Positions 11,789-24,462 of a stretch of DNA of 44,786 bases are shown in pieces. The stretch is from a phage. Each line of letters opens with the position of its first letter. Position 1 is the stretch's first letter. The stretch lies in assembly GCA_012646845.1 (NCBI GenBank), contig GCA_012646845.1_4707.2. One strand, written 5' to 3'. The notes beneath the pieces are model-generated. The model was not told the origin of the DNA, ran no database searches, and was given only the letters and a program-made list of their open reading frames with translations. The position numbers were made by a program, and so were the translations under genes.

Positions 11789-12118
11789 ATGAAACTGAAC
11801 ATCGAAATGGGTATTGCGTACGATACCATGTTTGGCATGTATGATCGTGTTAACGACTGGACGCCGTTGAAATGGGTTGCTCAGCACCCCGCTGAAGATC
11901 CCTGGGACAGATTAGGGATTAAGCCCTTAATCGAGGATTATGTTCGATTCGGTATTAAAGAGTTCATGACGCTGGATGCGTTTTTACAAGCACCGTATCC
12001 TTACGCGCAAACGGTACTCAAAATCGCACAAGACGAACTGCGGAAACGTAGTGCGGTACTGGACGACGATGAGGACAAGTTACGACGAGAAGAAGAACGT
12101 TTACGAAACGGAAAATAA
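11789..12118 (+). CDS. hypothetical protein or frameshift extension of 10038..11696
   Basis: Track ORF begins with TTG at 11759; first ATG at 11789; frame continuous with -1 frame of upstream gene. Confidence 0.45.
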   Translation: MKLNIEMGIAYDTMFGMYDRVNDWTPLKWVAQHPAEDPWDRLGIKPLIEDYVRFGIKEFMTLDAFLQAPYPYAQTVLKIAQDELRKRSAVLDDDEDKLRREEERLRNGK

Positions 12119-12119
12119 A

Positions 12120-12629
12120 ATGGCGAGATTTACCAGTTTGATTGGGTTGGATATTTGGGAAACACCGGCTGACGTTCGGGTTATTCCTGTCAACACCGTC
12201 GGTGTGATGGGGCGTGGTCTTGCCAAGCAGGCAGCTGATCGTGTACCCGGTCTTCTTGAAGCGTACCGTAAGCAATGTCGAGATGGGTTTAAGGTGGGCG
12301 AAGTCGTATCGTATCAACATGGCGATAACGATCAACTCACCTACGTGTTGTTTCCATCAAAATCGGATTGGCGTGAAAGAACACGGCGCGAGTATATCGT
12401 TAACGGTTTACTGGCGTTAAAAGCGTGGTTATTGGAGCTTCAGTTCGAAAGAGACGGCTTCTCATACCACCGTCCGGCTGAACCACTGATTGTCGCAATT
12501 CCTCCGGTTGGTTCTGGTTGCGGTAATATCGGTTACGGACAATCCGAGACAATCCAGCCTCAATGGGTACGCGCACAAATCAAACAGTATCTTGCCACCG
12601 TGCCAAACGTTCATTTCTACTTGTTCTAA
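12120..12629 (+). CDS. macro-domain protein (putative ADP-ribose binding/hydrolase)
   Basis: ATG at 12120; motifs VIPVNTVGVMGRGLAKQAADRVPG and IAIPPVGSGCGNIGYG resemble macro-domain glycine-rich loops. Confidence 0.7.
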   Translation: MARFTSLIGLDIWETPADVRVIPVNTVGVMGRGLAKQAADRVPGLLEAYRKQCRDGFKVGEVVSYQHGDNDQLTYVLFPSKSDWRERTRREYIVNGLLALKAWLLELQFERDGFSYHRPAEPLIVAIPPVGSGCGNIGYGQSETIQPQWVRAQIKQYLATVPNVHFYLF

Positions 12630-12639
12630 TGCAAAGATA

Positions 12640-12687
12640 GCATAACCCTCCTCCTGGCCTGAACCAGGAGGAAGGGTGTTTTTATGC
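12640..12687. terminator. Bidirectional terminator hairpin between convergent genes
   Basis: GCATAA-CCCTCCTCCTGG-CCTGAA-CCAGGAGGAAGGGTG-TTTTTATGC; perfect extended inverted repeat. Confidence 0.65.
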
Positions 12688-14196
12688 CGCGAAGGTTGGC
12701 TTGTTGCTGGCTTCCCAGGCGGTAGCACCGGTGTCGAAATCGGCATGTTCTGTTACGTTGGAGACGTTCCAACCGGAGATATCCTGGTTGAACGCCTTTG
12801 CGTCCTCAAACATGCTCCGCATCGAAACAATATTAGACATGTTCCAGCTACCGATGTTCTGGTTGAACACAACAGCACTACGGAACATGCGATCGGCATT
12901 CGTTACGTTCGACATATCCCAACCGATGACGTTAGGATCGTTGAACTTCGAACAGCCTAAGAACATCGAGTTGGTGCTGGTGACAGCAGTAGGCAGCTCT
13001 GCCGGGACCGACGTCAGGTTGCTAGCACGTTCGAATGACCAGTTACGGACATCATTCTGTTTCCCGAAGCTCAGAACCGCGAGCAGCGCGTTACCGCCGA
13101 GGTTGATTTTCAGGGATTTAAGTCCGCTCTCTTTCCAACCAATCTCGATGCGACCGGCTTGCGTAACGTCGATGCCCGTATTCGCACCTTCGACAACGTC
13201 TACCTTCACATTGTCGTACGAGAGACGATACCAGAGTTCTGGGTCGACGCCGCCGGTAAGAGGAATATCACCATCGCCCAATGGCACGTCAAACGTGTCG
13301 GAGATAACAGAAAGATCCAGCGCACCCGGCTGCACGGTAGCGGTGAAGTAGGTGAAGTCCTCTGGCTCGGTCACGACCTCATGGTAGCGAAGATACACAT
13401 CGCCAGCCCAAGATTCCGTTTCGGCGTAATCCGTGCTAAGATGCACTGCCTTGTATCCGTCATCAAGGTCGTGCACGGCGATTACATACGCATATTCGAG
13501 CAACGTCGCGAACTCAGTGCGGGTGGTTTCATCGTACCCACCCGCTGAGACCAGACGGTCGATAATGTCGTTACGTAACGCATCATCGATAGCGGCACCG
13601 ATTTCCATCGTCGCCACGTTGTGCTTCGCGACGATCTCATCCCAATCTAACGACAGCGACAGCAGACTCAATGAGGCAAGAGAGTCGCTGTTGTGTAAAT
13701 AGTTGAGTGTATAAAGGTCGGTTTTAGCGATGATGGTCACCAGGTCCAACGTATCGTTGGCGACGGTGAACTTGAGTTTACCTGCCCATACGTAGGAGGC
13801 ATCCGCTGCGTTAAGTTCGAGTTCCTTAACGCCGCTGTCTTCAAAGGTCACTGCGGTTTGCAGATCGGCTTCCAAGAAGTCAACGGTTTTGTCTAACGAC
13901 ACCCCATACCGTGCAGCTAACTGATCGACCACAGCGCCGATGGTGGTATCTGCGTTAACGATGAAGCGCAGAGGAAGACCCAGGAAGTTCTTGGTAAGAT
14001 CTCGGCGAACATAGACCAGGGTTTGTTCGTTGAAGTAGGGGCTACCCTCTAACGGTTTGATGCGGACACTCACCGCATCTGTAGCGTCGTCCTTAGCGAC
14101 AAACTCAAACGTCACGTCCTGTTCGGTCAGCGTAAGCTGGTTCTTACTGTTAACCAGTTCCAGCAACTCATCTTTCCAGTGTTGTAATAACTTCAT
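12682..14196 (-). CDS. putative receptor-binding/tail fibre protein with C-terminal DUF285 (BspA-like) repeats
   Basis: C-terminal repeats GWDMSNVTNADRMF / FNQNIGSWNMSNIVSMRSMF / FNQDISGWNVSNVT; N-terminal domain shared with 15364..17976 and 23321..23848. Confidence 0.75.
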   Translation of the reverse strand: MKLLQHWKDELLELVNSKNQLTLTEQDVTFEFVAKDDATDAVSVRIKPLEGSPYFNEQTLVYVRRDLTKNFLGLPLRFIVNADTTIGAVVDQLAARYGVSLDKTVDFLEADLQTAVTFEDSGVKELELNAADASYVWAGKLKFTVANDTLDLVTIIAKTDLYTLNYLHNSDSLASLSLLSLSLDWDEIVAKHNVATMEIGAAIDDALRNDIIDRLVSAGGYDETTRTEFATLLEYAYVIAVHDLDDGYKAVHLSTDYAETESWAGDVYLRYHEVVTEPEDFTYFTATVQPGALDLSVISDTFDVPLGDGDIPLTGGVDPELWYRLSYDNVKVDVVEGANTGIDVTQAGRIEIGWKESGLKSLKINLGGNALLAVLSFGKQNDVRNWSFERASNLTSVPAELPTAVTSTNSMFLGCSKFNDPNVIGWDMSNVTNADRMFRSAVVFNQNIGSWNMSNIVSMRSMFEDAKAFNQDISGWNVSNVTEHADFDTGATAWEASNKPTFAA

Positions 14197-14203
14197 TTTG
14201 GCC

Positions 14204-14380
14204 TCATTCTAAGCGTGGCATTGAGGGAACCTCGTGCCGGTGTTTTCGGAATTGTGTGTCGATAACCTCACGAAGCTTCAGGGCATCGTGAAGAGTCGAC
14301 GAGTTATACAACGTGAGCGTTACCGTCATGCGGGTGCGTTCACGCGTGTATTCTTTCCGACTGATGATGTCCGTATGCTG
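14204..14380 (-). pseudogene. Partial duplicate of the 3' half of gene 14389..14763
   Basis: Frame encodes ...TVTLTLYNSSTLHDALKLREVIDTQFRKHRHEVPSMPRLE*, paralogous to ...TVTLELFNKSTWVDAYRLREVIDGQFRKHRHEVPSMPKK... of the adjacent gene; DNA-level similarity evident. Confidence 0.45.
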
Positions 14381-14388
14381 TTATGCTA

Positions 14389-14763
14389 TTAATGTTCGTT
14401 CCAGATGGCATCTTCCGGTGGAACAATAGGATCTTTCTTCGGCATTGATGGCACTTCATGACGATGTTTACGGAACTGTCCGTCGATAACTTCACGAAGC
14501 CGGTACGCATCAACCCACGTTGATTTATTGAACAGCTCCAACGTCACAGTTAACCGCGTTCTTGACATTGAATAGCTTTTCTTTGCAATCAAATCGGGAT
14601 AATTCAGTTGAGCGAACCATGCCCGTATTTGTGCTTCGGTAAAAGCGATGCTGTAATAACTAAGTTTACCGTCATTAAAATCGTGCGCGTGGGTGTAACG
14701 TCCAGCGTAACGCCAAACAAGATGCACATTCAGATCGATCCATGGTGGGGTGGTATCAGCCAT
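14389..14763 (-). CDS. hypothetical protein (124 aa)
   Basis: ORF track. Confidence 0.65.
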   Translation of the reverse strand: MADTTPPWIDLNVHLVWRYAGRYTHAHDFNDGKLSYYSIAFTEAQIRAWFAQLNYPDLIAKKSYSMSRTRLTVTLELFNKSTWVDAYRLREVIDGQFRKHRHEVPSMPKKDPIVPPEDAIWNEH

Positions 14764-14772
14764 GTGTTACCC

Positions 14773-15342
14773 TCAACGATTCTTCATCACTTTACCCAGG
14801 CTTTCGATATTATCCCAAAAGCGATTTTTACTTGGCGCATCGCCGACGATAACCGACATCAAATCACGACGCTCGCGACTGATGATACCCTGCGATTTCC
14901 AGATCACCATCGTCCAGCAAGCAGCCAGAACGAACAGATGGTTAATACTCGGTTTGGTTTGTGCGATGAACGCAAGCCATGCCCAGATACCGGTATATAC
15001 TACCGTCACTAAAAAGAGAGAGATTGTTGCAACGACAACAACGAAGTTTTGGATGGCTGGCTGATTGGCGTTATCCTGAAAAGCGGTAAGATCAGGAAGA
15101 TTACCTTCAACGGAACTCGTATCATCGATTTCCAATTCTTCGATTTCTTTTCGTATGTCGGGAGCTAATCCGGCATCATCAAGATGCTTTTTTAACCGCT
15201 GTATACTTAATCGTTGACCGACAGGGATATTAATGTTGTCGTAACTATTAAGCACATCAACCAGGGAGCGTCCGTCAACGAGAACCAGGCTCGCGGTACC
15301 CATCGTTTGCGGTTTTATTTTGTAAAGATCTTTTACTTTCAT
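14773..15342 (-). CDS. hypothetical membrane protein (189 aa)
   Basis: Hydrophobic segments VVVATISLFLVTVVYTGIWAWLAFIA and LFVLAACWTMVIW. Confidence 0.65.
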   Translation of the reverse strand: MKVKDLYKIKPQTMGTASLVLVDGRSLVDVLNSYDNINIPVGQRLSIQRLKKHLDDAGLAPDIRKEIEELEIDDTSSVEGNLPDLTAFQDNANQPAIQNFVVVVATISLFLVTVVYTGIWAWLAFIAQTKPSINHLFVLAACWTMVIWKSQGIISRERRDLMSVIVGDAPSKNRFWDNIESLGKVMKNR

Positions 15343-15363
15343 GTAGACACCACCTCCAACGTG

Positions 15364-17976
15364 TTAAGCGTCTGGTGTAAAATCAAAAGGAACGTCCGTA
15401 CGAATGATATCATAACGTTTTCCTAGGAAATAGAACTCTTCGGGAACCTGACCGGGAATGATGCTATCGCCGATGAACTGTGGGTATGCCCAGATGTACT
15501 GAGTGAGTCCTTCGAACATATCCAGGTTATTTGCGTGGTTACCCATGATACGTTTCCAGAGTTCGCGTTTATACGGTGTTTTGACATCGAACCCATAAAG
15601 CGGTGCGAGGTCTTCGCCTGGAACAAACCCCAGGTAATAGTGGATCTGACTAACCGGGAACCCAAGCGTGTCTCGCGGAATGGTGATCGCTCGCTCAGCC
15701 TTGGTGACATGCGTCTCAATAATCCAGTCGTAGCACTCCGAATAGAACCGATCGAATTTCTCTGGATTGTACCACGCTTTGGGAAGATTCAGTTTCTCTG
15801 TGAACGCGTTCGACATGATCGTCGGCAAGAACGGAAGAACGCCGGTTTTGATCTGCGTGTATTTCGATTTTACCCGATTGACCAGATTCCAGCAAGCAGA
15901 GCCGAGCTGATCGTTGCAGAACTCAACGTACAGATCGTAATCCCCACCCGATAATGGATTATTAATGTCGCCGATATCGGCGGCGTATTTGTTGGGGTAT
16001 CGGTTATTGAAAGCCAGTTTGGTTTGGTAATCGTAGATACACGGTTTGTTGTTCGCCGTGTTGATCCACCACCAGGGTTCACCTACTTGTACACAAATGT
16101 CTTGGACATGCGGGTAGATGATATCAGCAAACGCGGTTAACACATCCCCTAACCACGTCATCGCATGTTGGTTGCATGGCGACAACAACCAAGACGGCGG
16201 CGTATATCCGGTTGCTGCGATGTTTCCTTCCCAATCCTGCTGCGCCCATTCGAACGGGCATGCGGTACTCATCAATTCGTAACTTAAACTGATGGTGATA
16301 GAGAAATGATGTTTTGCAGCATATGCGGCGAACGCTTCATGCCACGCGATACAGGGTGGATTTAATACATCCGTGGTGTTCACCAGTAACTTACCCGCAC
16401 TTGGCGTCCAGACAGTATCGTAGAAATGCGACATGCCAACATAATGCACTAATTCATCCTGATACCCTGCATAAACCAGGTTTTCAAATACGCGCTCCGG
16501 CGTGATGTTGTAATGGTCATCGTAAGCGGTTATCGCACGAAGTTCGTGTGGTGTACAGTGGTGGCGACTAACCGTCATTTCCTGATACACCCCATCGATA
16601 GGAAGAATCTCGAGGGTTAAACCGAGGTCGATTGGCGTTTCCAGGTAGGTCGTTTCAGTCGCATCTTCCTTATAATGTCGAGAACTCATACTGAACATCA
16701 GCGACGTGACCGATTCGAGTTCGATAGGTTCGTCAGCATAGAACCCCGCCATCGCGTCGTTGAAATCGATCGTTACGATTGCGCTTGTACCGTCTTCAGA
16801 GACGTCGGTCGCATATCGGGTTAATGAGATATACTGACGGCTATCGTCTTTGTGTACGATGGTTAGAACCGGCGGGTGTTCGGTATCTGCAAAGTTACGC
16901 TGATCGCCAGTAAATGTGATCTTCGCTTTAAAGATCAAACCGAGCAACGACGTCATTGGATCATACGCAACACAACCGTGATCCAGCGTATCCGTTGTCC
17001 GCCATTCTATCCCGACCAACCCGTTAGCGGTATGGCATCGCATATACGCATTAAGTACCATGTCTTCACTGACAACCGCGAAGTTCTCTGTTGACTGACC
17101 GTTGATAATCCAATACATCGGTTGCCAGAGGTTACGCGTACCTTTTGCGTAGCGGTAGGTTGGTGCGCCTTTAGGGTTGCCGTTATTGAGATGGAATACG
17201 GCAGTACCTTGGTAATGATCGTTCGTGTTAATCGGAACAGTGTACGCGTCGCCGAGGTCCGTACGTTCGACCTTCGTGACAGTTGCGTTTTCAAACAGCC
17301 TGCGTAGTGTAGGAAGACCAATATCATCAGGCGCGTTTTCTCGACGAATTGCGTCCGCGATGCGATGGGCTAGGGCGGGGTAAATGGTCTCACCCTGCTG
17401 TAAGTTTGCAAGACCTACAAAGCGATCGGGGTTGATACCGGCAATCAATAACTCAACATCGCCCCTCGTTCTATCATCATGGAGGTATTTCAGTCCAGTA
17501 AGATCGAGGTGTCGAATTAACGACAACAGATTGTACTTACGGTTTTCAACAGTCAGTACAAGATCACCTGCCCAAACCAAACTTCCCTCATCCACCATTA
17601 CTCTAACGGATTGGCGGCCTGTGGTAGACGTTGTTGTCGTTTTATTTAATTGTCCTTGTAGGAAGTCGGTTGCGAGGTCAAAGGCAACGCCGTAACGGTC
17701 AGCGACCGCCTGCATGATTTCACGTAACTGGGTATCTTCTTCAATGATGATCTTGACAGGTATTCCCAAGAACGCTTTGGCGAGGTCTCGCTTAACCATC
17801 GAGACGAATACGGATTTGTAATATCGGCCTCCATCTTTCCCTTTAAAAAGAATGGAGGTTGTTTCGGGCGACGATAGAACACGTGCAAATTCAACATCGT
17901 CGGAAGTAAGAGAAAGTCCGTTTTTCTCGTTGACCAATCTTAGTATTTCATTTTGCGCGGTTTCATGCAACTTCAT
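15364..17976 (-). CDS. large putative receptor-binding protein/tailspike (870 aa)
   Basis: N-terminal domain (VKRDLAKAFLGIPVKII) shared with 12682..14196 and 23321..23848; long Trp/Tyr-rich C-terminal domain. Confidence 0.75.
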   Translation of the reverse strand: MKLHETAQNEILRLVNEKNGLSLTSDDVEFARVLSSPETTSILFKGKDGGRYYKSVFVSMVKRDLAKAFLGIPVKIIIEEDTQLREIMQAVADRYGVAFDLATDFLQGQLNKTTTTSTTGRQSVRVMVDEGSLVWAGDLVLTVENRKYNLLSLIRHLDLTGLKYLHDDRTRGDVELLIAGINPDRFVGLANLQQGETIYPALAHRIADAIRRENAPDDIGLPTLRRLFENATVTKVERTDLGDAYTVPINTNDHYQGTAVFHLNNGNPKGAPTYRYAKGTRNLWQPMYWIINGQSTENFAVVSEDMVLNAYMRCHTANGLVGIEWRTTDTLDHGCVAYDPMTSLLGLIFKAKITFTGDQRNFADTEHPPVLTIVHKDDSRQYISLTRYATDVSEDGTSAIVTIDFNDAMAGFYADEPIELESVTSLMFSMSSRHYKEDATETTYLETPIDLGLTLEILPIDGVYQEMTVSRHHCTPHELRAITAYDDHYNITPERVFENLVYAGYQDELVHYVGMSHFYDTVWTPSAGKLLVNTTDVLNPPCIAWHEAFAAYAAKHHFSITISLSYELMSTACPFEWAQQDWEGNIAATGYTPPSWLLSPCNQHAMTWLGDVLTAFADIIYPHVQDICVQVGEPWWWINTANNKPCIYDYQTKLAFNNRYPNKYAADIGDINNPLSGGDYDLYVEFCNDQLGSACWNLVNRVKSKYTQIKTGVLPFLPTIMSNAFTEKLNLPKAWYNPEKFDRFYSECYDWIIETHVTKAERAITIPRDTLGFPVSQIHYYLGFVPGEDLAPLYGFDVKTPYKRELWKRIMGNHANNLDMFEGLTQYIWAYPQFIGDSIIPGQVPEEFYFLGKRYDIIRTDVPFDFTPDA

Positions 17977-17998
17977 TGAAAACCTCAGCCCTTTAGAA

Positions 17999-18640
17999 TT
18001 AGATGTACTGCTTACCGCCCACGAAGGAAGTTAGCCAGTTCCCACTGACAAGCTGTGATACCCAGCCAGGCACTGCCCTGCCATTCTGACTCATCACATT
18101 ACCACACCAACCAGGGAATCCGGGACGGATATAATAGAAAGTTAAATTGTAGAGATGGCAATTCCATACTGCAACGTTATGTTTACGAGCAACCGCTTTA
18201 AAGACAAACGCAACGGGTAAAGGCGACGATAGCAATTCGGTCACGGGGACGGCCGACCAGTTCGCATTTGCGTTCCACGGTTGCCAGGTATGGCTACGCG
18301 AGTCGCAATATACGTTACCGTTGTTACCTCGCCCACCCGCATTCCACCATAGCGACGGACTCATGTTCTTAAGTGAGGTAAATTGCTGTGGTGGAATATT
18401 CGGAATAATAACAGGGTTGACGCCTTGCCCATTTTTCTTTTCTTTTGCGTTCACATACCCGCTTATCGATTCGAGGTATTTGACACCAGGATAATTGTTC
18501 TGGACTCGTGTCGCAATATCACGGACATCAAACGTCCAGCAGATCATGGTGTTGTAGTAAGCATCGGTGTTGTCGTACCATGCGTTACCATCTTGTAAAC
18601 GTGCGCCACTATTCGGTGTTTTATCTGTGCTTATAGCCAT
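17999..18640 (-). CDS. hypothetical tail-associated protein, paralog 1 (213 aa)
   Basis: C-terminal 40 aa (RPGFPGW.GNVMSQNGRAVPGWVSQLVSGNWLTSFVGGKQY) identical to neighbour apart from one residue. Confidence 0.7.
   Translation of the reverse strand: MAISTDKTPNSGARLQDGNAWYDNTDAYYNTMICWTFDVRDIATRVQNNYPGVKYLESISGYVNAKEKKNGQGVNPVIIPNIPPQQFTSLKNMSPSLWWNAGGRGNNGNVYCDSRSHTWQPWNANANWSAVPVTELLSSPLPVAFVFKAVARKHNVAVWNCHLYNLTFYYIRPGFPGWCGNVMSQNGRAVPGWVSQLVSGNWLTSFVGGKQYI
18035..18103. repeat. 69-nt near-identical direct repeat, copy 1
   Basis: Matches 18792-18860 with a single mismatch. Confidence 0.85.
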
Positions 18641-18746
18641 GGTATTGTCCTATACTACGATGATTGAGGTATCGAATGTCGGACGCCTGGTGTCGTCTGG
18701 TAGTACATACAGAAACACCCGCAGATAAAACAATAACTCCCATCAA

Positions 18747-19412
18747 TTAAATTGATGTTAGATACTGCTTACCTCCGACAAACGATGTCAACCAGTTCCC
18801 ACTGACAAGCTGTGATACCCAGCCAGGCACTGCCCTGCCATTCTGGCTCATCACATTACCAGCCCATCCCGGAAAACCAGGTCGGAAAATATATACTTGA
18901 ATATGTGTTAAAGCGTTATCATTACCTCCACCAACAGCAACATTACGACGTCCGGATGATGGGAAATATTCTTTTAAGAACAGGGGATCGTTTGCCAATA
19001 AAGAAGCAGGCCAAGGATTAGCGGATGCGTCAACATCGAATTCGGTCCATCGCCATTTGCGTCCGGTATCGAACCAGGTTGACGTACCGCCACCACGCAC
19101 CGCAAGATTGCGTGCATCACGGGCACTGTATATTGATTCGATGTTTCGCCACCCACCTTTTGCGGCGTTTGCCGCATAGCAAACCGCATTACCACCATTC
19201 TTCTTTTCGTAAACGGTTCGTTTGATATGAACACGGTCGATAAACGCTTCACCGTATTTGTTGACAAGTGTTTGCGCAATATCACGAAGATCGTGCATAT
19301 GAAAGGCGATGTCTTCGTTGTGGAACCACGTTGTCGGGTTCCAAACGGTGCCGTTTGGTTCGGCACACATCGATCTGATATTGTTGCGCTGATTAATCGC
19401 GATAAAGCCCAT
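18747..19412 (-). CDS. hypothetical tail-associated protein, paralog 2
   Basis: Start moved to ATG at 19412 (GAGGTG RBS; track start at 19475 lies inside an upstream hairpin); N-terminal DLRDIAQTLVNKY aligns with DVRDIATRVQNNY of paralog 1. Confidence 0.7.
   Translation of the reverse strand: MGFIAINQRNNIRSMCAEPNGTVWNPTTWFHNEDIAFHMHDLRDIAQTLVNKYGEAFIDRVHIKRTVYEKKNGGNAVCYAANAAKGGWRNIESIYSARDARNLAVRGGGTSTWFDTGRKWRWTEFDVDASANPWPASLLANDPLFLKEYFPSSGRRNVAVGGGNDNALTHIQVYIFRPGFPGWAGNVMSQNGRAVPGWVSQLVSGNWLTSFVGGKQYLTSI
18792..18860. repeat. 69-nt near-identical direct repeat, copy 2
   Basis: Matches 18035-18103 with a single mismatch. Confidence 0.85.
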
Positions 19413-19527
19413 GGCCCACCTCGTTTCTATTCTCGAAGGAAATTTCATACGATGACGCCATAACAGCTCCCCCATCCCCCCAACCCGTAAGGGAAGGGAG
19501 GATGTAAGGGAAGGAGGAGCTATTTAA

Positions 19528-20031
19528 TTACTGGCTGACAACCTCAACGGAACTGGGATCGGCGATCAGCGCACGGTCGGTAGAACAATTGAAGAAGACC
19601 ATCCCAACACCATCGCCGTTCGAGTTCAGGGTTGAACTTACGTAAGACAATGTTGGTTTATTCATACGGTAGAAGCGTTCGCTGGTGGTGGTATTGAACC
19701 CCAGATCAACGTAGTCTTTCACCGTGGTGTACAGCTGTGTGGACTCGAAAACGGTTACCGGAGAGTCAACGGTAAACTGACTGCCTTCATCCACAACCAG
19801 AACTTTATCGTTCCAGATTTCAGTGGTTGAGAACTTCGGTTTCCAATGTTCGAATTCCTGGGTTGCGCCCCAGCAAGAATACACAGCGAGATTGCTGTTC
19901 TTCTCGACAGGTTTTAACCCCACCAGTTGTGTCAGGCCTTTATCCAGGTTCGGTAAGCCTTCCAGCGTAGCACACCCACCCAGAGAAAGTACCATCAACA
20001 TACCGAGAATAATCGCGCAAAGTTTCTTCAT
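19528..20031 (-). CDS. lipoprotein (167 aa)
   Basis: Signal peptide with lipobox MKKLCAIILGMLMVLSLGGC. Confidence 0.75.
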   Translation of the reverse strand: MKKLCAIILGMLMVLSLGGCATLEGLPNLDKGLTQLVGLKPVEKNSNLAVYSCWGATQEFEHWKPKFSTTEIWNDKVLVVDEGSQFTVDSPVTVFESTQLYTTVKDYVDLGFNTTTSERFYRMNKPTLSYVSSTLNSNGDGVGMVFFNCSTDRALIADPSSVEVVSQ

Positions 20032-20075
20032 CGTCGGATTTCCTTATGTGTTAACGGAAGTGATTTCCATAGTAA

Positions 20076-20660
20076 TTACACAGCTGTAGGAAGTTCAGGC
20101 CAATCGATATTTGGTGCTGTTGATGTGTCAACGCGGTGCAGAGCCACCCGATACTTTTTCCATGCTGTCAGCATCGACACCTCTTCTTCCGTTGCGATCT
20201 CCAGATCCACAGCATCCTGAAGTGGCGCAATACGATCATTCGCTGCCTGCATCAGACTGTTTTTTGTTTCTTCCGCCTCCCGGACATGGGATTGTTTTTC
20301 CGCATCTGTATCTTTCACCCAGGTTGTTCCGTCCCACTTCTGAAACTCTCCTTCCGGGGATAACCAAGTAGTATTTTCTGGTAACGGACCGAGTTCAGAA
20401 ATAAATAACGCGTCGCCGGAAGCCACATCATAGACGGTTTTACCCCGATGGTCTTCAACAATATACCACGATTCATTTTCACTGTTAAAAACTGCCACAA
20501 AGTCAGCAGGAATTTCCGGTGGGGCGATATCTGTAGAATTAGCTGGTAGTCCCGTATGCGGTGGAATATATGCGTCGCCTTCACCAATAAACTCATTGGT
20601 TCCGGCCAGCAGATTATAAATTTTTATGGTTTGTGGTTCATCACTCATTCTGAATGCCAT
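20076..20660 (-). CDS. tail fibre assembly protein (chaperone)
   Basis: Start overlaps fibre stop (TAATG); sequence resembles Tfa/gpG-type chaperones; position immediately downstream of fibre gene. Confidence 0.8.
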
Positions 20661-23314
20661 TATGCAAGCCTCACGATGTAGTTAAATGCGATGTTTTTGA
20701 CGGTGTTTTCCGCGTTACCCGCGGCGTTAACGGTGATGGTGTGTCCATGCGATCCAATCGCAACCGAGTGCGTATGCGCACCAATACCTACAGTATGTGC
20801 ATGTGCACCGGCACTCGCGGCTGTACCGGACAATGAGTGACTATGAGCGCCAGCAGAAGAAGTGTTGACATCGTATTTAGCATAATCAGGCGACCCACTT
20901 CCCGGAGTACCACTGGTGCCACCTGCGACAAATCTCATCGAGTGGGTGTGTGCTCCAGCCGTGTTTGTGGAACCACTCAGACTGTGCGTATGCGCCCCGG
21001 TGTTATTCGTGGTTTTAGTGCCGTAATCAAACGACGATGTGGTTTTCGTCCCCAAATCCGTACCGGATGCGCTGGCGCTATGGTTGTGCGATTTAATGCC
21101 GTCCTGTTCCTGAGACAATACAGCACGACCACTGGCAGGTTTGCCCTTAATCGTCCAGCCACGCATATCAGGAATAACGCCTGACGGATAAGCCACTGCA
21201 AGTTTCGGGTATACAGATTTGTCAAAAGTCTGCCCTTGCATCAGAGCATAACCAGACGGAACGGTATCTGAAGGCCATGGAATAGGCGTACCAACAGGCA
21301 ACGCTGAACCGCCATCCGAACCCGCATCTTTGGTTGGTATAACGATGTTCGCCGAGCCGTCGAACTCAATACCGTTGATTGTGACAGCCGTTTGCAATTT
21401 CGTGGCTGTCGCAGCGTTACCCGTCGTATTCTGATTACCAACCGCATTGACGCCCGGTAATGCAATATCCGCTGTTCCGTCAAAGGCAACACCACCGATT
21501 TTACGTGCGGTTTGTAGCTTGGTTGCACTAGCGGCGTTACCGCTGGTATTCTGGGTGCCAGCTTTGTTAACACCGGGGAGATCGATGTTAGCAGAACCAT
21601 CGAAGCTGACGCCACCTATCGTTCTTGCGGTAGCGAGTTTAGCTGCTGTGGCTGCATTATTACCCACTTTCAGCCAATCATCCCATGGGCCATCCTGGCC
21701 GTTCCATGCTGCCGTTAAACTACGTACGTAAATATTGCCGGTACGTACAGTGTAACGTTGCGTTCCACCGAATTGTCCGGCAGGGAGCACTTCAAGGTAA
21801 CCTGCGGCATTTGCTTCAGGGAAATTGTGGGCGACGTCCGCGTTCGTTGATACTGGTTTAGACCAAATACCCACGGACGCTTCAACCGGACCGTAAGTAT
21901 TCAGATTTGCGTCGGTGGGGAGCTGTCCTCGAAAACGCTGGAATTGTGTTGCCGATAACCCCAACGTTGTTTGCATGCTTTCAATGCTGGATTGCTGCAG
22001 TAACGTCCGTGCTGTCGACGTAATCACGGTAAGCGCAACTTTATTAACACCGGTGAAATACGGGAGTTTGTCTGCTGATGTCACTAAACCTGAAAAGGCG
22101 GTCAGTAATTCGTTAAGGGGTTGCTTCCCAGCTAACGCATTTGTTACCGTCGTTGCGAAATTAGGATCGCTTCCTATAGCTCGAGCCAGCTTATTAAGCG
22201 TATTTAGCGTCGCTGGTGACGAGTCGATCAGTGCCGTGATCGCACGCATCACAAATTCCGTGTTGGCTATCTGTCGACTGCTATCGTTAACTGCTGCGGT
22301 GGGCGCTGCTGGCGTACCAGTGAATACAGGGCTATTAAGATCCGCCTTGAGGGCGATGAGGCGTTTAAGCGCTTCAACATCAACTTTCAGGTTTTCCCAT
22401 CCGATGAGAGAACCATCACCGTTGGCATGATAACGGTTGTACCAGAAGTCACCGTTAACGCCAAAAAAGAATATACATTTCTCTTCGTTTTGTGGACCGG
22501 AACTATTTCGTGATGAGTCGATATATTTGATTTCAATAAGACCGCTAAACACCACCCCTGGGATTATATTGTTGTCTCCAGCTGACTGTGATACCTGGTA
22601 CATCCCCGGGGTTGCGGCTTTAACCCATGTTAAGAATTCTGTTACTCCAGCGGTACCGCTAAAATTCTTAACGTCGGTAAGTATCGCCCCATAACCGAAC
22701 ATACCGGGTAGAGCCACTCGTCCGCTGGTACGATCACGAATATCTGTCGCAACAACAGGCAATTGTTTACGAACGGCATTAACCGCTTTAGGCGTGGCCG
22801 ATTTTGTCTCGTCGTCGCTATCGGTTTCATTACTTAGAATAGTTAAACCGCGTGTAGCAGTAGTTGCATCAGGAAGAAATGCGTTATCCAACACCTTAAG
22901 CTGTATTGCACTCGTATTACTAACAACGACATGCACCTGACAGTTAAGAACGCTGGTTGCGCCTTCGGCAGGCGTAGGCTTATATCTTTCTGGCGCACTG
23001 CAGACGGCAATCAGAACACCTTGGTCGTCATACAGACCGATCTCACGTACCCAGAACCCACCTTGACTAGCAGGAATAATACCCTCAACGATAATCCTGG
23101 TTGTACTATCGCCATCCGTATGGACATTGGAAACTTCCCCACGATAAACTTCATGGACAAGCGCTGTTTGACTGGTGGTTGGGGTTGGGATCGAACCACT
23201 ACCATCGCCAACGGCAAAGTGTGTGATTTTTAGTTTCTTACCGTCAGGAAGTAACGCTGCAGCGATACGTTCTGCGCCTTTATCGGTAACGACCGTTTTA
23301 TATGCTGTACTCAT
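20660..23314 (-). CDS. tail fibre protein, P2 gpH-like N-terminus, internal repeats, His-rich C-terminus
   Basis: N-terminus [21 protein letters not shown]...[20 protein letters not shown] resembles gpH-type collar domain; ~39-aa tandem repeats ([28 protein letters not shown]); C-terminal GAHTHS repeats. Confidence 0.9.
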
Positions 23315-23320
23315 GATGTT

Positions 23321-23848
23321 TTATCCTGGATAAATAGTGATGGTATCGCCAATGACGGCTGTAGCACCGGTGTAAAGATAAGCCGGAGATACATCACGCT
23401 GGTTTGTCGCAGTAAGATCCAGTCGACCACGCCAAACCATAGAGGTACTCGCAATGGGGATAGAAATCTTTTTGGATATATCGTCACGAAAATCAATAAC
23501 AGTGGCAAGGGTAACTGCATCAAAGTCAACGTCGGGGTCAAAGACGAACCCGTATTGATCTGAAATCGCCCGAATAATCGCATTTATAGTTGTTGTCTCA
23601 ACGGACTCTAAAACGATTTTTACCGGTATTCCTAGAAATACCTTCGCAATATCGCGTCGAGCGTAAACGATAAAACTTTCACCGTTCCACCTTGTTCCTT
23701 CATTTGCTGTGACGATCACTTTTGCCATGTTAGCACCGGAACTTCCATCCAAGACTAATGTAAGATCGGAGCTGTTGAACACGCTACTGTTACGTCTGTT
23801 TATCAATGACGTCAGTTCGTCTTTCCATGGCGGGTAAAGTGAACACAT
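23321..23848 (-). CDS. hypothetical protein carrying the shared RBP N-terminal domain only
   Basis: Start moved to ATG at 23848 (GGAGGAGGG RBS); ARRDIAKVFLGIPVKIV motif matches N-termini of 12682..14196 and 15364..17976. Confidence 0.65.
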   Translation of the reverse strand: MCSLYPPWKDELTSLINRRNSSVFNSSDLTLVLDGSSGANMAKVIVTANEGTRWNGESFIVYARRDIAKVFLGIPVKIVLESVETTTINAIIRAISDQYGFVFDPDVDFDAVTLATVIDFRDDISKKISIPIASTSMVWRGRLDLTATNQRDVSPAYLYTGATAVIGDTITIYPG

Positions 23849-23871
23849 ATATGCACCCTCCTCCAACATAA

Positions 23872-24462
23872 TCAGATTAAATATAAACTTCTTAAACGTG
23901 GAACACGATTCGAGATAAACGTAAACGGCCTTAACGACCGCATAAAATTCCGCGCATACCCTCTATCCCGACAAAGCGAGGGGGGTTTATCCATCGGAAA
24001 ATCCGTAGGAGACCGATAGGTGTTTTCCTGTTGATACGTAAACAAGAAATCGATCCAATGACTGATGTAAGTGAATAGCTTCTCAGGGATAGCTAAACCG
24101 CGATCATGCAGTCCTGCATAAAGCCTCACCGCTGAAAAGAAAGCCCTCGGCTGATAACCAGACCATGCTGTCTGATCGCCGAAGTGGTACATCGTAAAAT
24201 CATTAACTTTCGATCCGCTTGGCGCATCCCAACGATCCCACACGTACGCACTCGCACCCGACCCTAAAACCCCGAATTTCTGATAATACCACTGCTGTGA
24301 GTCATACCAGAAATTCACAACATTCCGAATCATGAGGTCACGTCGTTCAGCCGGTACGTCCATATCCAGGAAGACCCATGGATGTTGGTAGCCAGGATAA
24401 GGCTGACCACGCCAACTGTCGAACGTCAACGCTTCCTCTTGCCATGATGCTTCAGGATACAT
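23872..24462 (-). CDS. hypothetical protein, Trp/Tyr-rich (196 aa)
   Basis: ORF track; first gene after strong terminator. Confidence 0.6.
   Translation of the reverse strand: MYPEASWQEEALTFDSWRGQPYPGYQHPWVFLDMDVPAERRDLMIRNVVNFWYDSQQWYYQKFGVLGSGASAYVWDRWDAPSGSKVNDFTMYHFGDQTAWSGYQPRAFFSAVRLYAGLHDRGLAIPEKLFTYISHWIDFLFTYQQENTYRSPTDFPMDKPPSLCRDRGYARNFMRSLRPFTFISNRVPRLRSLYLI

Follow-up and report, generated by a model that had tools for sequence, protein, structure and literature searches.

How does a chimallivirus recognise its host, and which parts of its recognition machinery are free to change? Chimalliviruses are of interest for therapy: the phage nucleus shields them from DNA-targeting defences, and how they find their hosts is barely known. 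The question arises in a stretch of phage DNA of 44,786 nucleotides (nt), contig GCA_012646845.1_4707.2 of NCBI GenBank assembly GCA_012646845.1, the whole of which we call the window. An original prediction, made from the sequence alone, had placed a locus for several receptor-binding proteins between positions 12682 and 24462, where three proteins, here called the 504-, 870- and 175-aa proteins after their lengths in amino acids (aa), would carry one N-terminal domain in front of different C-terminal modules. We found that this shared domain belongs to the family DUF7941. The window backbone is 92-94% nucleotide-identical to Escherichia phage vB_EcoM_Goslar (hereafter Goslar), a chimallivirus, that is, a nucleus-forming jumbo myophage of E. 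coli, and the backbone proteins gp84, gp85, gp87 and gp88 are 93-98% identical to those of Goslar by BLASTP. We read the window as the locus by which a Goslar-like chimallivirus recognises its host. We propose that DUF7941 probably docks host-recognition modules on the outer baseplate, in head-to-tail chains, or both, and that cassettes are exchanged behind it.

Goslar has the same family, the same locus and the same principle of a common N-terminal module that carries host-recognition domains. That principle is already published, and our finding therefore refines existing knowledge and opens no new question. New here is which binding cassettes the locus carries: a 504-aa member in a new slot, the loss of two members, and evidence of cassette exchange. 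New too is a confident model of the gp86 C-terminal part, a β-sandwich with a glycosidase-like TIM barrel that N4 sheath proteins and fibre proteins of the rV5/phi92 type also have. Compared with Goslar, gp92 and gp93 survive only as a 196-aa remnant, an extra gp87 paralogue is present, and the tail fibre is shorter, with a lambdoid tip and a lambdoid assembly protein.

Three proteins of the locus share the DUF7941 module

Do the three N-termini belong together? By BLASTP, the 504- and 870-aa proteins align over 250 aa at 34% identity (E=2e-34), the 175- and 504-aa proteins over 149 aa at 34% (E=3e-25), and the 175- and 870-aa proteins over 143 aa at 31% (E=1e-20). In Pfam, all three score above the PF25613 (DUF7941) gathering threshold of 27 bits, with 97.6 bits for the 504-aa protein, 140.5 for the 870-aa protein and 51.9 for the shortest (175/182-aa) protein. 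The PF25613 model has 276 positions, which the 504-aa protein covers from 3 to 275 and the 870-aa protein from 2 to 275; the 175-aa protein covers only 7-153. Moreover, each of the three has an orthologue in other phages that is closer to it than either of its window paralogues. The three N-termini are truly homologous. Their C-termini are mutually unrelated by Pfam, and a six-frame scan of the window with the hidden Markov model found no fourth DUF7941 member.

The claim that three open reading frames (ORFs) share an N-terminal domain and have unrelated C-termini is thus confirmed by BLASTP, by PF25613 and by the Pfam domains of the C-terminal parts, and the alignment of the three N-termini that had been suggested as a check gave significant similarity throughout (E 1e-20 to 2e-34). 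The extent of the domain had been put too low, at about 130 aa: what all three have in common amounts to about 150 aa, and the 504- and 870-aa proteins share a complete module of about 275 aa, in which a linker joins an N-terminal to a C-terminal domain. The linker motif of these two long proteins is conserved with Goslar gp22, gp31, gp33, gp34 and gp93.

The module is known from the Goslar virion and the phiKZ baseplate

Where in the virion might such a module sit? Goslar encodes ten DUF7941 proteins (gp22, gp23, gp31, gp33, gp34, gp86, gp91, gp92, gp93 and gp161), all of them detected in the virion (Basu et al., bioRxiv 10.64898/2026.04.21.720040). Three of them, gp86, gp92 and gp161, continue behind the module with domains of the carbohydrate-binding, glycoside-hydrolase or leucine-rich-repeat kind. 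Mass spectrometry in the same preprint gives about 4.5 copies per virion for gp86, 4.9 for gp92 and 4.8 for gp93, and about 580 and 2140 for gp22 and gp23. AlphaFold models there dock the linker and C-terminal domain of one protomer on the N-terminal domain of its successor, head-to-tail; purified Goslar gp22 formed filaments in negative stain; and a "fibre cloud" anchored at the peripheral baseplate was proposed (bioRxiv 10.64898/2026.04.21.720040).

The only experimentally determined location for the DUF7941 family comes from phiKZ. A profile of 72 family members, the three window proteins among them, matched chain PHIKZ127 of PDB entry 9XQD with E=5e-23 over residues 12-290; phmmer, run against the PDB sequences with the 504-aa or the 870-aa protein as query, missed phiKZ gp127 at E up to 1. 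This protein is a 290-aa stand-alone module, homologous over the whole of DUF7941 and without an effector domain. One copy occupies each of the six star lobes of the phiKZ outer baseplate, where the gp139 band ends (Nat Commun 2026, PMC13250141). The same structure holds gp131-gp135, paralogues with a shared N-terminal baseplate-attachment region and different distal domains that form a hetero-hexameric fibre base (PMC13250141). Their design principle is the same and their domain is different; the seven-bladed propeller of gp131 is absent here. When the DUF7941 profile was run against all PDB sequences at E<=1, PHIKZ127 was the sole phage protein found, which is weak evidence, the deposition of gp131-type N-terminal chains being unchecked.

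Taken with the Goslar preprint, phiKZ gp127 upholds the core of the earlier idea, a common virion-attachment domain fused to interchangeable receptor-binding or enzymatic modules; what that idea lacked is that the module has also been proposed to polymerise head-to-tail.

How widely is this design used? When 1.84 billion representatives were searched with a profile of the three N-terminal domains, 206 clusters matched at E<=1e-3. In nearly every one of the best 150 of these, the domain occupies residues ~1-150, and lengths fall into three classes: the N-terminal domain by itself (about 160-195 aa), the complete module (about 270-290 aa) and the module with an extension (380-1478 aa). DUF7941 is matched by 47 of the 51 long members. 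Most of their extensions have no Pfam match; identifiable partners are DUF285 (12/47) and, once each, an N4-type TIM barrel, Laminin_G_3, LRR_5 and Ig domains. Of the layouts that can be identified in the family, that of the 504-aa protein, DUF7941 followed by DUF285, is the commonest. Comparison of the window with its relatives points to DUF7941 as the constant part of a cassette system.

The gp86 orthologue carries an N4-type module

What do the two long proteins carry behind DUF7941? The 870-aa protein is 96.6% identical to Goslar gp86 by BLASTP, and gp86 is about 96% conserved in every Goslar-like contig that we examined. Its C-terminal part matches PF23844 (NCTSP_N) and PF23845 (TIM-barrel_NCTSP) with 284.7 and 42.3 bits (aa 285-837), and phmmer relates it to phage N4 gp64 (E=4.6e-30) and gp65 (E=1.9e-7). 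A homologue search with the full 870-aa query gave four near-identical proteins, and an N4 gp64 fragment was added to reach the wider family. From the resulting 53-sequence alignment, AlphaFold2 (AF2) modelled aa 281-870 with a mean predicted local distance difference test (pLDDT) of 91.6 and a predicted template modelling score (pTM) of 0.91, as a β-sandwich followed by a TIM barrel. Foldseek placed N4 gp64 at the top (E~1e-21, template modelling (TM) score 0.65 on the target, root-mean-square deviation 2.4-2.7 Å) and also found N4 gp65. Next came glycosidases of the glycoside hydrolase (GH) families GH31, GH36, GH13 and GH14, together with Cwp19, at 8-12% identity; the GH31/36/13/14 matches have a probability of 1.0, yet their TM scores are low (TMq <=0.39, TMt <=0.58). 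Three carboxylates (E567, E633 and D649 in the numbering of the 870-aa protein) are invariant in the 53 homologues, and E747 and D750 are conserved in >=90% of them. E633 and E747 lie at or just past strand ends in the AF2 model, and E567 lies inside its 279-289 strand region. These positions fit a conserved sugar-binding or catalytic pocket and are no proof of one.

Should we then regard gp86 as a sheath protein? In N4, gp64 and gp65 make up a non-contractile sheath (PDB 9LC0, 9YF4), and gp65 is the receptor-binding protein. Both have an NCTSP_N β-sandwich and a TIM barrel in common with residues 281-840 of the 870-aa protein. Unlike in N4, the module sits here behind DUF7941 in one chain, in a contractile-tailed jumbo phage, and cannot build an N4-type sheath. 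The parts of N4 gp65 that bind the tail plug and NfrA are absent, and only gp65 residues ~56-126 and 379-441 align. Proteins of about 690 aa from rV5-like and phi92-like E. coli myophages are 36-41% identical over 94-97% of the module; they are annotated as lateral tail fibre or non-contractile tail sheath, and they carry the module behind other N-terminal regions. Judged from these comparisons, the N4-like region of the 870-aa protein reads as a shared module, not as a sheath protein.

The N4 relationship also raises the question of a receptor. N4, Vequintavirinae and phi92-like phages have been reported to require wecB and nfrB, in other words the N4 glycan receptor (NGR); the paper on this dependence credits shared deacetylase tailspikes. 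A role of the gp86-type module in NGR dependence is speculation. On this footing we can offer only a doubtful hypothesis, though one open to test: Goslar-like jumbo phages may use the NGR glycan or the exporter NfrA as their primary receptor through the gp86 module, with the exchangeable cassettes and the fibre tip tuning strain range. If this were true, the DUF7941 N-terminal domain would be a universal plug for engineering receptor-binding cassettes into chimalliviruses.

The gp86 clusters hold 162-434 member sequences in public read-set assemblies (P0121, P0122), and Goslar-like contigs of 119-239 kb (L007, L009, L011) sit in NCBI assemblies labelled Escherichia coli. Together, the cluster sizes and these labels indicate that Goslar-like jumbo phages are common in sequenced E. 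coli cultures or samples.

A leucine-rich-repeat member occupies a variable slot

The C-terminus of the 504-aa protein matches DUF285 (PF03382) at aa 404-493 with 86.9 bits (E=1e-24; gathering score 25 bits) and shows a tandem periodicity of about 25 aa over three to four repeats. In bacteria, BspA-family leucine-rich repeat proteins (DUF285) are cell-surface adhesins; here the repeats are joined to a virion module of a phage. Goslar gp161 is 35.7% identical to the 504-aa protein by tblastn, with 100% of the query covered; it is annotated as a BspA-family leucine-rich repeat surface protein and has the same layout of DUF7941 and repeats. AF2 modelled the full 504-aa protein from a 12-sequence alignment with a pLDDT of 51.8 (65-80 in the N-terminal domain, 75-89 in the repeats), and the model, being too poor, was left out of fold searching.

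Is this gene a fixed part of the locus? Its slot, between gp84 and the macro-domain gene, is empty in Goslar, which has no counterpart at this position. By blastn against Goslar, the insertion that carries the 504-aa gene spans 12651-14373 of the window. L007, L009 and L011 likewise have no gene in this slot, and two metagenomic Goslar-like contigs (L003, L004) have there a gene for a 467-aa DUF7941-DUF285 protein. Comparison with the L003 gene is informative along its length: identity is 74-94% in the first 400 nt, drops to 29-46% over nt 500-1300 and is back at >=85% in the last ~150 nt with the terminator. By this pattern, the cassette of the 504-aa gene has been exchanged behind a conserved N-terminal domain relative to L003. 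Complete E. coli genomes and plasmids, searched by megablast with the 504-aa gene region, gave no match, and so no sign that a prophage or plasmid was the source.

The borders of the slot carry marks of their own. At one end, a GC-rich hairpin found by a terminator-like scan lies between the convergent macro-domain and 504-aa genes; it is probably a terminator shared by both, and it is identical in L003 and L006. At the other, after gp84 and directly upstream of the 504-aa gene, lies a remnant of 58 codons whose translation (...TVTLTLYNSSTLHDALKLREVIDTQFRKHRHEVPSMPRLE) resembles the gp84 C-terminus. It is conserved in L003, L004 and L006, and suggests an old duplication or a recombination joint tied to the cassette slot.

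Two further relatives add observations of their own. A 1.9-kb ENA contig (ERZ18534393 NODE_2672; L006) encodes at 254-1843 a 529-aa variant of the 504-aa protein (variant P0001). Its DNA is 99-100% identical to the 504-aa gene over most of its length, with exactly one added 25-aa repeat, which indicates repeat-number polymorphism in natural populations; the N-terminal domain contains a divergent patch (~84% over alignment columns 101-200). In a more distant relative, a 21-kb Logan contig of SRR29937422 (L005), three large DUF7941 proteins lie beside the macro-domain gene: one of 947 aa, one of 775 aa with many DUF285 repeats, and one of 748 aa on the opposite strand. The macro-gene neighbourhood looks like an old hot spot for the DUF7941 family.

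The second slot has lost gp92 and gp93

The 175-aa protein is 88% identical to Goslar gp91 by BLASTP. An upstream ATG would stretch its ORF to 23869; Goslar gp91 and the family alignment favour the start at 23848. In the alignment, the "socket" half of the module is present, and the conserved linker motif and the C-terminal domain are absent. The protein resembles Goslar gp23 and gp91 in consisting of the N-terminal domain and a tail of about 25 aa, and the gp91 orthologue is present at about 1.2 copies per Goslar virion (bioRxiv 10.64898/2026.04.21.720040). The suggestion of an anchor-only or adaptor form, given at 176 aa, holds for the domain content, which includes no effector, and needs correcting to 175 aa in length; the protein may act as an adaptor or a cap.

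Upstream of gp91, Goslar has gp93 and gp92. Here, blastn against Goslar located the breakpoints of two deletions, of ~0.4 and ~3.6 kb (about 4 kb in all), that took most of both genes, with microhomology of just 2-5 nt at each junction. The ORF left behind (196 aa) is 91.6% identical to gp92 aa 945-1099 by BLASTP and is probably a non-functional remnant. The interval originally proposed for the locus ended with this ORF, at 24462, and its remnant status was missed; 23872..24462 is what deletion has left of gp93 and gp92. As an intact fourth or fifth family member it was rejected, being a chimera of the gp93 start, a gp92 fragment and read-through sequence. In relatives, the same slot is taken up in L007 by a DUF7941-DUF285 protein of 584 aa, and in L009 and L010 by a DUF7941 protein of 199 aa.

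The tail fibre has a lambdoid tip

Cassette exchange is not confined to the DUF7941 genes. The tail fibre is the orthologue of gp90, and its N-terminal 664 aa are 82.6% identical to it; it has fewer internal repeats, and is 884 aa long against 1324 aa in Goslar. Window positions ~20089-21298, which cover the fibre tip and the assembly gene (tfa), are 85-88% identical in nucleotides to stf/tfa of temperate lambdoid E. coli phages, and not to Goslar. By this similarity, the fibre tip and the assembly gene were swapped together for lambdoid versions. The lambdoid tip implies that a lytic, nucleus-forming jumbo phage has recently exchanged DNA with lambdoid phages or prophages.

By its Pfam domains the fibre is as genuine as had been supposed, and the expected total of four host-recognition modules comes down to three recognisable ones: the leucine-rich repeats, the β-sandwich with TIM barrel, and the fibre tip.

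How the locus may work

How could these parts act together? We propose that DUF7941 docks host-recognition modules on the outer baseplate and/or in head-to-tail chains, with cassette exchange behind it, and we give this reading, which leans on Goslar and phiKZ, a probability of about 0.7. The 870- and 504-aa proteins would dock by DUF7941 onto the peripheral baseplate, enter head-to-tail chains, or do both; most subunits of such chains would be abundant family members whose genes lie beyond the window. Their C-terminal modules, the N4-sheath-type β-sandwich with its glycosidase-like TIM barrel and the BspA repeats, would be held out towards the host, where they probably bind surface glycan and where the TIM barrel may cleave one. 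The 175-aa member, with its "socket" only, is most likely a minor adaptor or a chain end. Host range would evolve by cassette exchange at two hot spots, the gap between gp84 and the macro-domain gene and the region upstream of gp91, whose contents differ among related contigs. The first slot has gained the leucine-rich-repeat member and the second has lost gp92 and gp93, and the fibre tip with its assembly protein was swapped as well. Among near-identical Goslar-like genomes the two slots and the fibre tip turn over, and gp86 stays fixed. The locus thus yields candidates for host-range determinants and for engineering, as well as a testable receptor hypothesis for gp86 through the NGR pathway.

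Several points weigh against this proposal. Virion presence, location and polymerisation are carried over from Goslar and phiKZ, and for the 504-aa protein there is no orthologue with proteomic data at its position. The Goslar baseplate map does not resolve DUF7941 density (bioRxiv 10.64898/2026.04.21.720040), and support for the filament model comes from AlphaFold and from a single purified protein, gp22. Neither receptor binding nor enzymatic activity is established for any of the effector modules, and N4 gp64 and gp65 are themselves without demonstrated hydrolase activity. Fold prediction, recommended at the outset for the C-terminal domains, gave a β-sandwich and a glycosidase-like TIM barrel for the 870-aa protein and failed for the middle region of the 504-aa protein, which AF2 could not model (pLDDT <35). 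Finally, at ~3-7 copies per virion for gp86, gp92 and gp93 and ~1 for gp91, the Goslar counts would fit fixed baseplate sites equally well.

Might the module then be a simple anchor? The main rival explanation holds that the DUF7941 N-terminal domain places one effector copy at each of the six outer-baseplate lobes, like tailspike anchors in multi-spike phages, and that members with effectors do not enter long filaments. It draws on the copy numbers just given, each near 6 for gp86, gp92 and gp93, and on the exactly one gp127 per star lobe in the solved phiKZ structure. Against it stand the filaments that Goslar gp22 forms in vitro and the ~580 and ~2140 copies of gp22 and gp23 per virion. Moreover, both long window proteins retain the full linker and C-terminal domain that serve as the "plug" in the filament model. 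We consider it unlikely that fixed sites are the whole explanation, and the two models are mutually compatible.

A more radical alternative is that the three proteins are structural or ejected virion proteins of the head or inner body, that they have no part in host recognition, and that their C-terminal domains act inside the cell. The location of phiKZ gp127 in the outer baseplate speaks against this even though PHROG puts its families 1037 and 2935 in the category head and packaging, as virion structural protein, and even though chimalliviruses package many proteins without an assigned role. The DUF7941 genes flank the tail fibre and its assembly gene, their C-terminal modules are of surface-recognition types (BspA repeats, an N4 receptor-binding sheath module, homologues annotated as lateral tail fibres), and cassette turnover of the kind found here is typical of receptor-binding genes; we regard this alternative as very improbable. 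At the far end of the scale lies the notion that the N-terminal similarity itself is chance, a low-complexity artefact or a meaningless recent local duplication. Apart from the modest identity of 31-34%, everything runs contrary to it: E-values of 1e-20 to 2e-34, three scores above the Pfam threshold, closer orthologues elsewhere, and a family conserved across chimalliviruses. Chance similarity was rejected on the BLASTP E-values and Pfam scores. The docking of host-recognition modules by DUF7941, with or without chains, is the reading we retain.

Other genes of the locus

The features of the locus are collected in Table 1.

Table 1. Positions and contents of the genes and other elements discussed in the text (window coordinates)
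Feature	Position	Strand	Length	Description
Macro-domain gene	11976..12629	plus		Convergent with the 504-aa gene
GC-rich hairpin	12649..12672	.		Between the macro-domain gene and the 504-aa gene; probable shared terminator
504-aa protein	12682..14196	minus	504 aa	DUF7941 aa 3-272; β-rich middle aa ~275-400; DUF285 repeats aa 404-493 (nt 12718-12987)
gp84-paralogue C-terminus remnant	14207..14380	minus	58 codons	Directly upstream of the 504-aa gene, after gp84
gp85 orthologue	14773..15342	minus	189 aa	Two strongly hydrophobic, membrane-span-like stretches
870-aa protein (gp86 orthologue)	15364..17976	minus	870 aa	DUF7941 aa 2-277; β-sandwich NCTSP_N aa 285-450; TIM barrel aa 476-837
gp87-type paralogue 1	17999..18640	minus	213 aa
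gp87-type paralogue 2	18747..19475	minus	242 aa	Absent from Goslar
gp88 orthologue	19528..20031	minus	167 aa	96% identical; lipoprotein-like signal peptide
Tail-fibre assembly protein	20076..20660	minus	194 aa	Caudo_TAP; only 32% identical to Goslar gp89
Tail fibre	20660..23314	minus	884 aa	gp90 orthologue; Phage_tail_fib, Collar, fibre repeats (Pfam, PHROG)
175-aa protein	23321..23848	minus	175 aa + stop	N-terminal domain of DUF7941 alone + ~25-aa tail; no effector domain
196-aa fusion ORF	23872..24462	minus	196 aa	gp93 start (~10 aa) + gp92 aa 945-1099 + read-through into former intergenic DNA

What might the remaining genes contribute? Goslar gp85 is present at about 4.6 copies per virion, near the level of gp86, the product of the adjacent gene, which it may serve as partner or assembly factor. 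A scan for sigma-70 promoters gave fewer matches than in shuffled sequence, and such a scan is uninformative for a phage with its own RNA polymerases.

The two gp87-type paralogues have no Pfam or PHROG match. They align by BLASTP with E=3e-35 and about 39% identity overall, and their last ~43 aa are near-identical (...RPGFPGW.GNVMSQNGRAVPGWVSQLVSGNWLTSFVGGKQY). The pair mirrors the DUF7941 pattern, with a constant C-terminus and a variable N-terminal part, and the second copy varies among relatives (191-238 aa). In the Goslar virion, gp87 is present at about 19 copies and the fibre gp90 at about 43 (bioRxiv 10.64898/2026.04.21.720040).

The last of the neighbours is gp88, whose signal peptide (MKKLCAIILGMLMVLSLGGC...) is lipoprotein-like. 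Goslar gp88 is among the unexplained proteins found at >200 copies per virion (bioRxiv 10.64898/2026.04.21.720040), and a lipoprotein at that level in a virion preparation is an odd finding.

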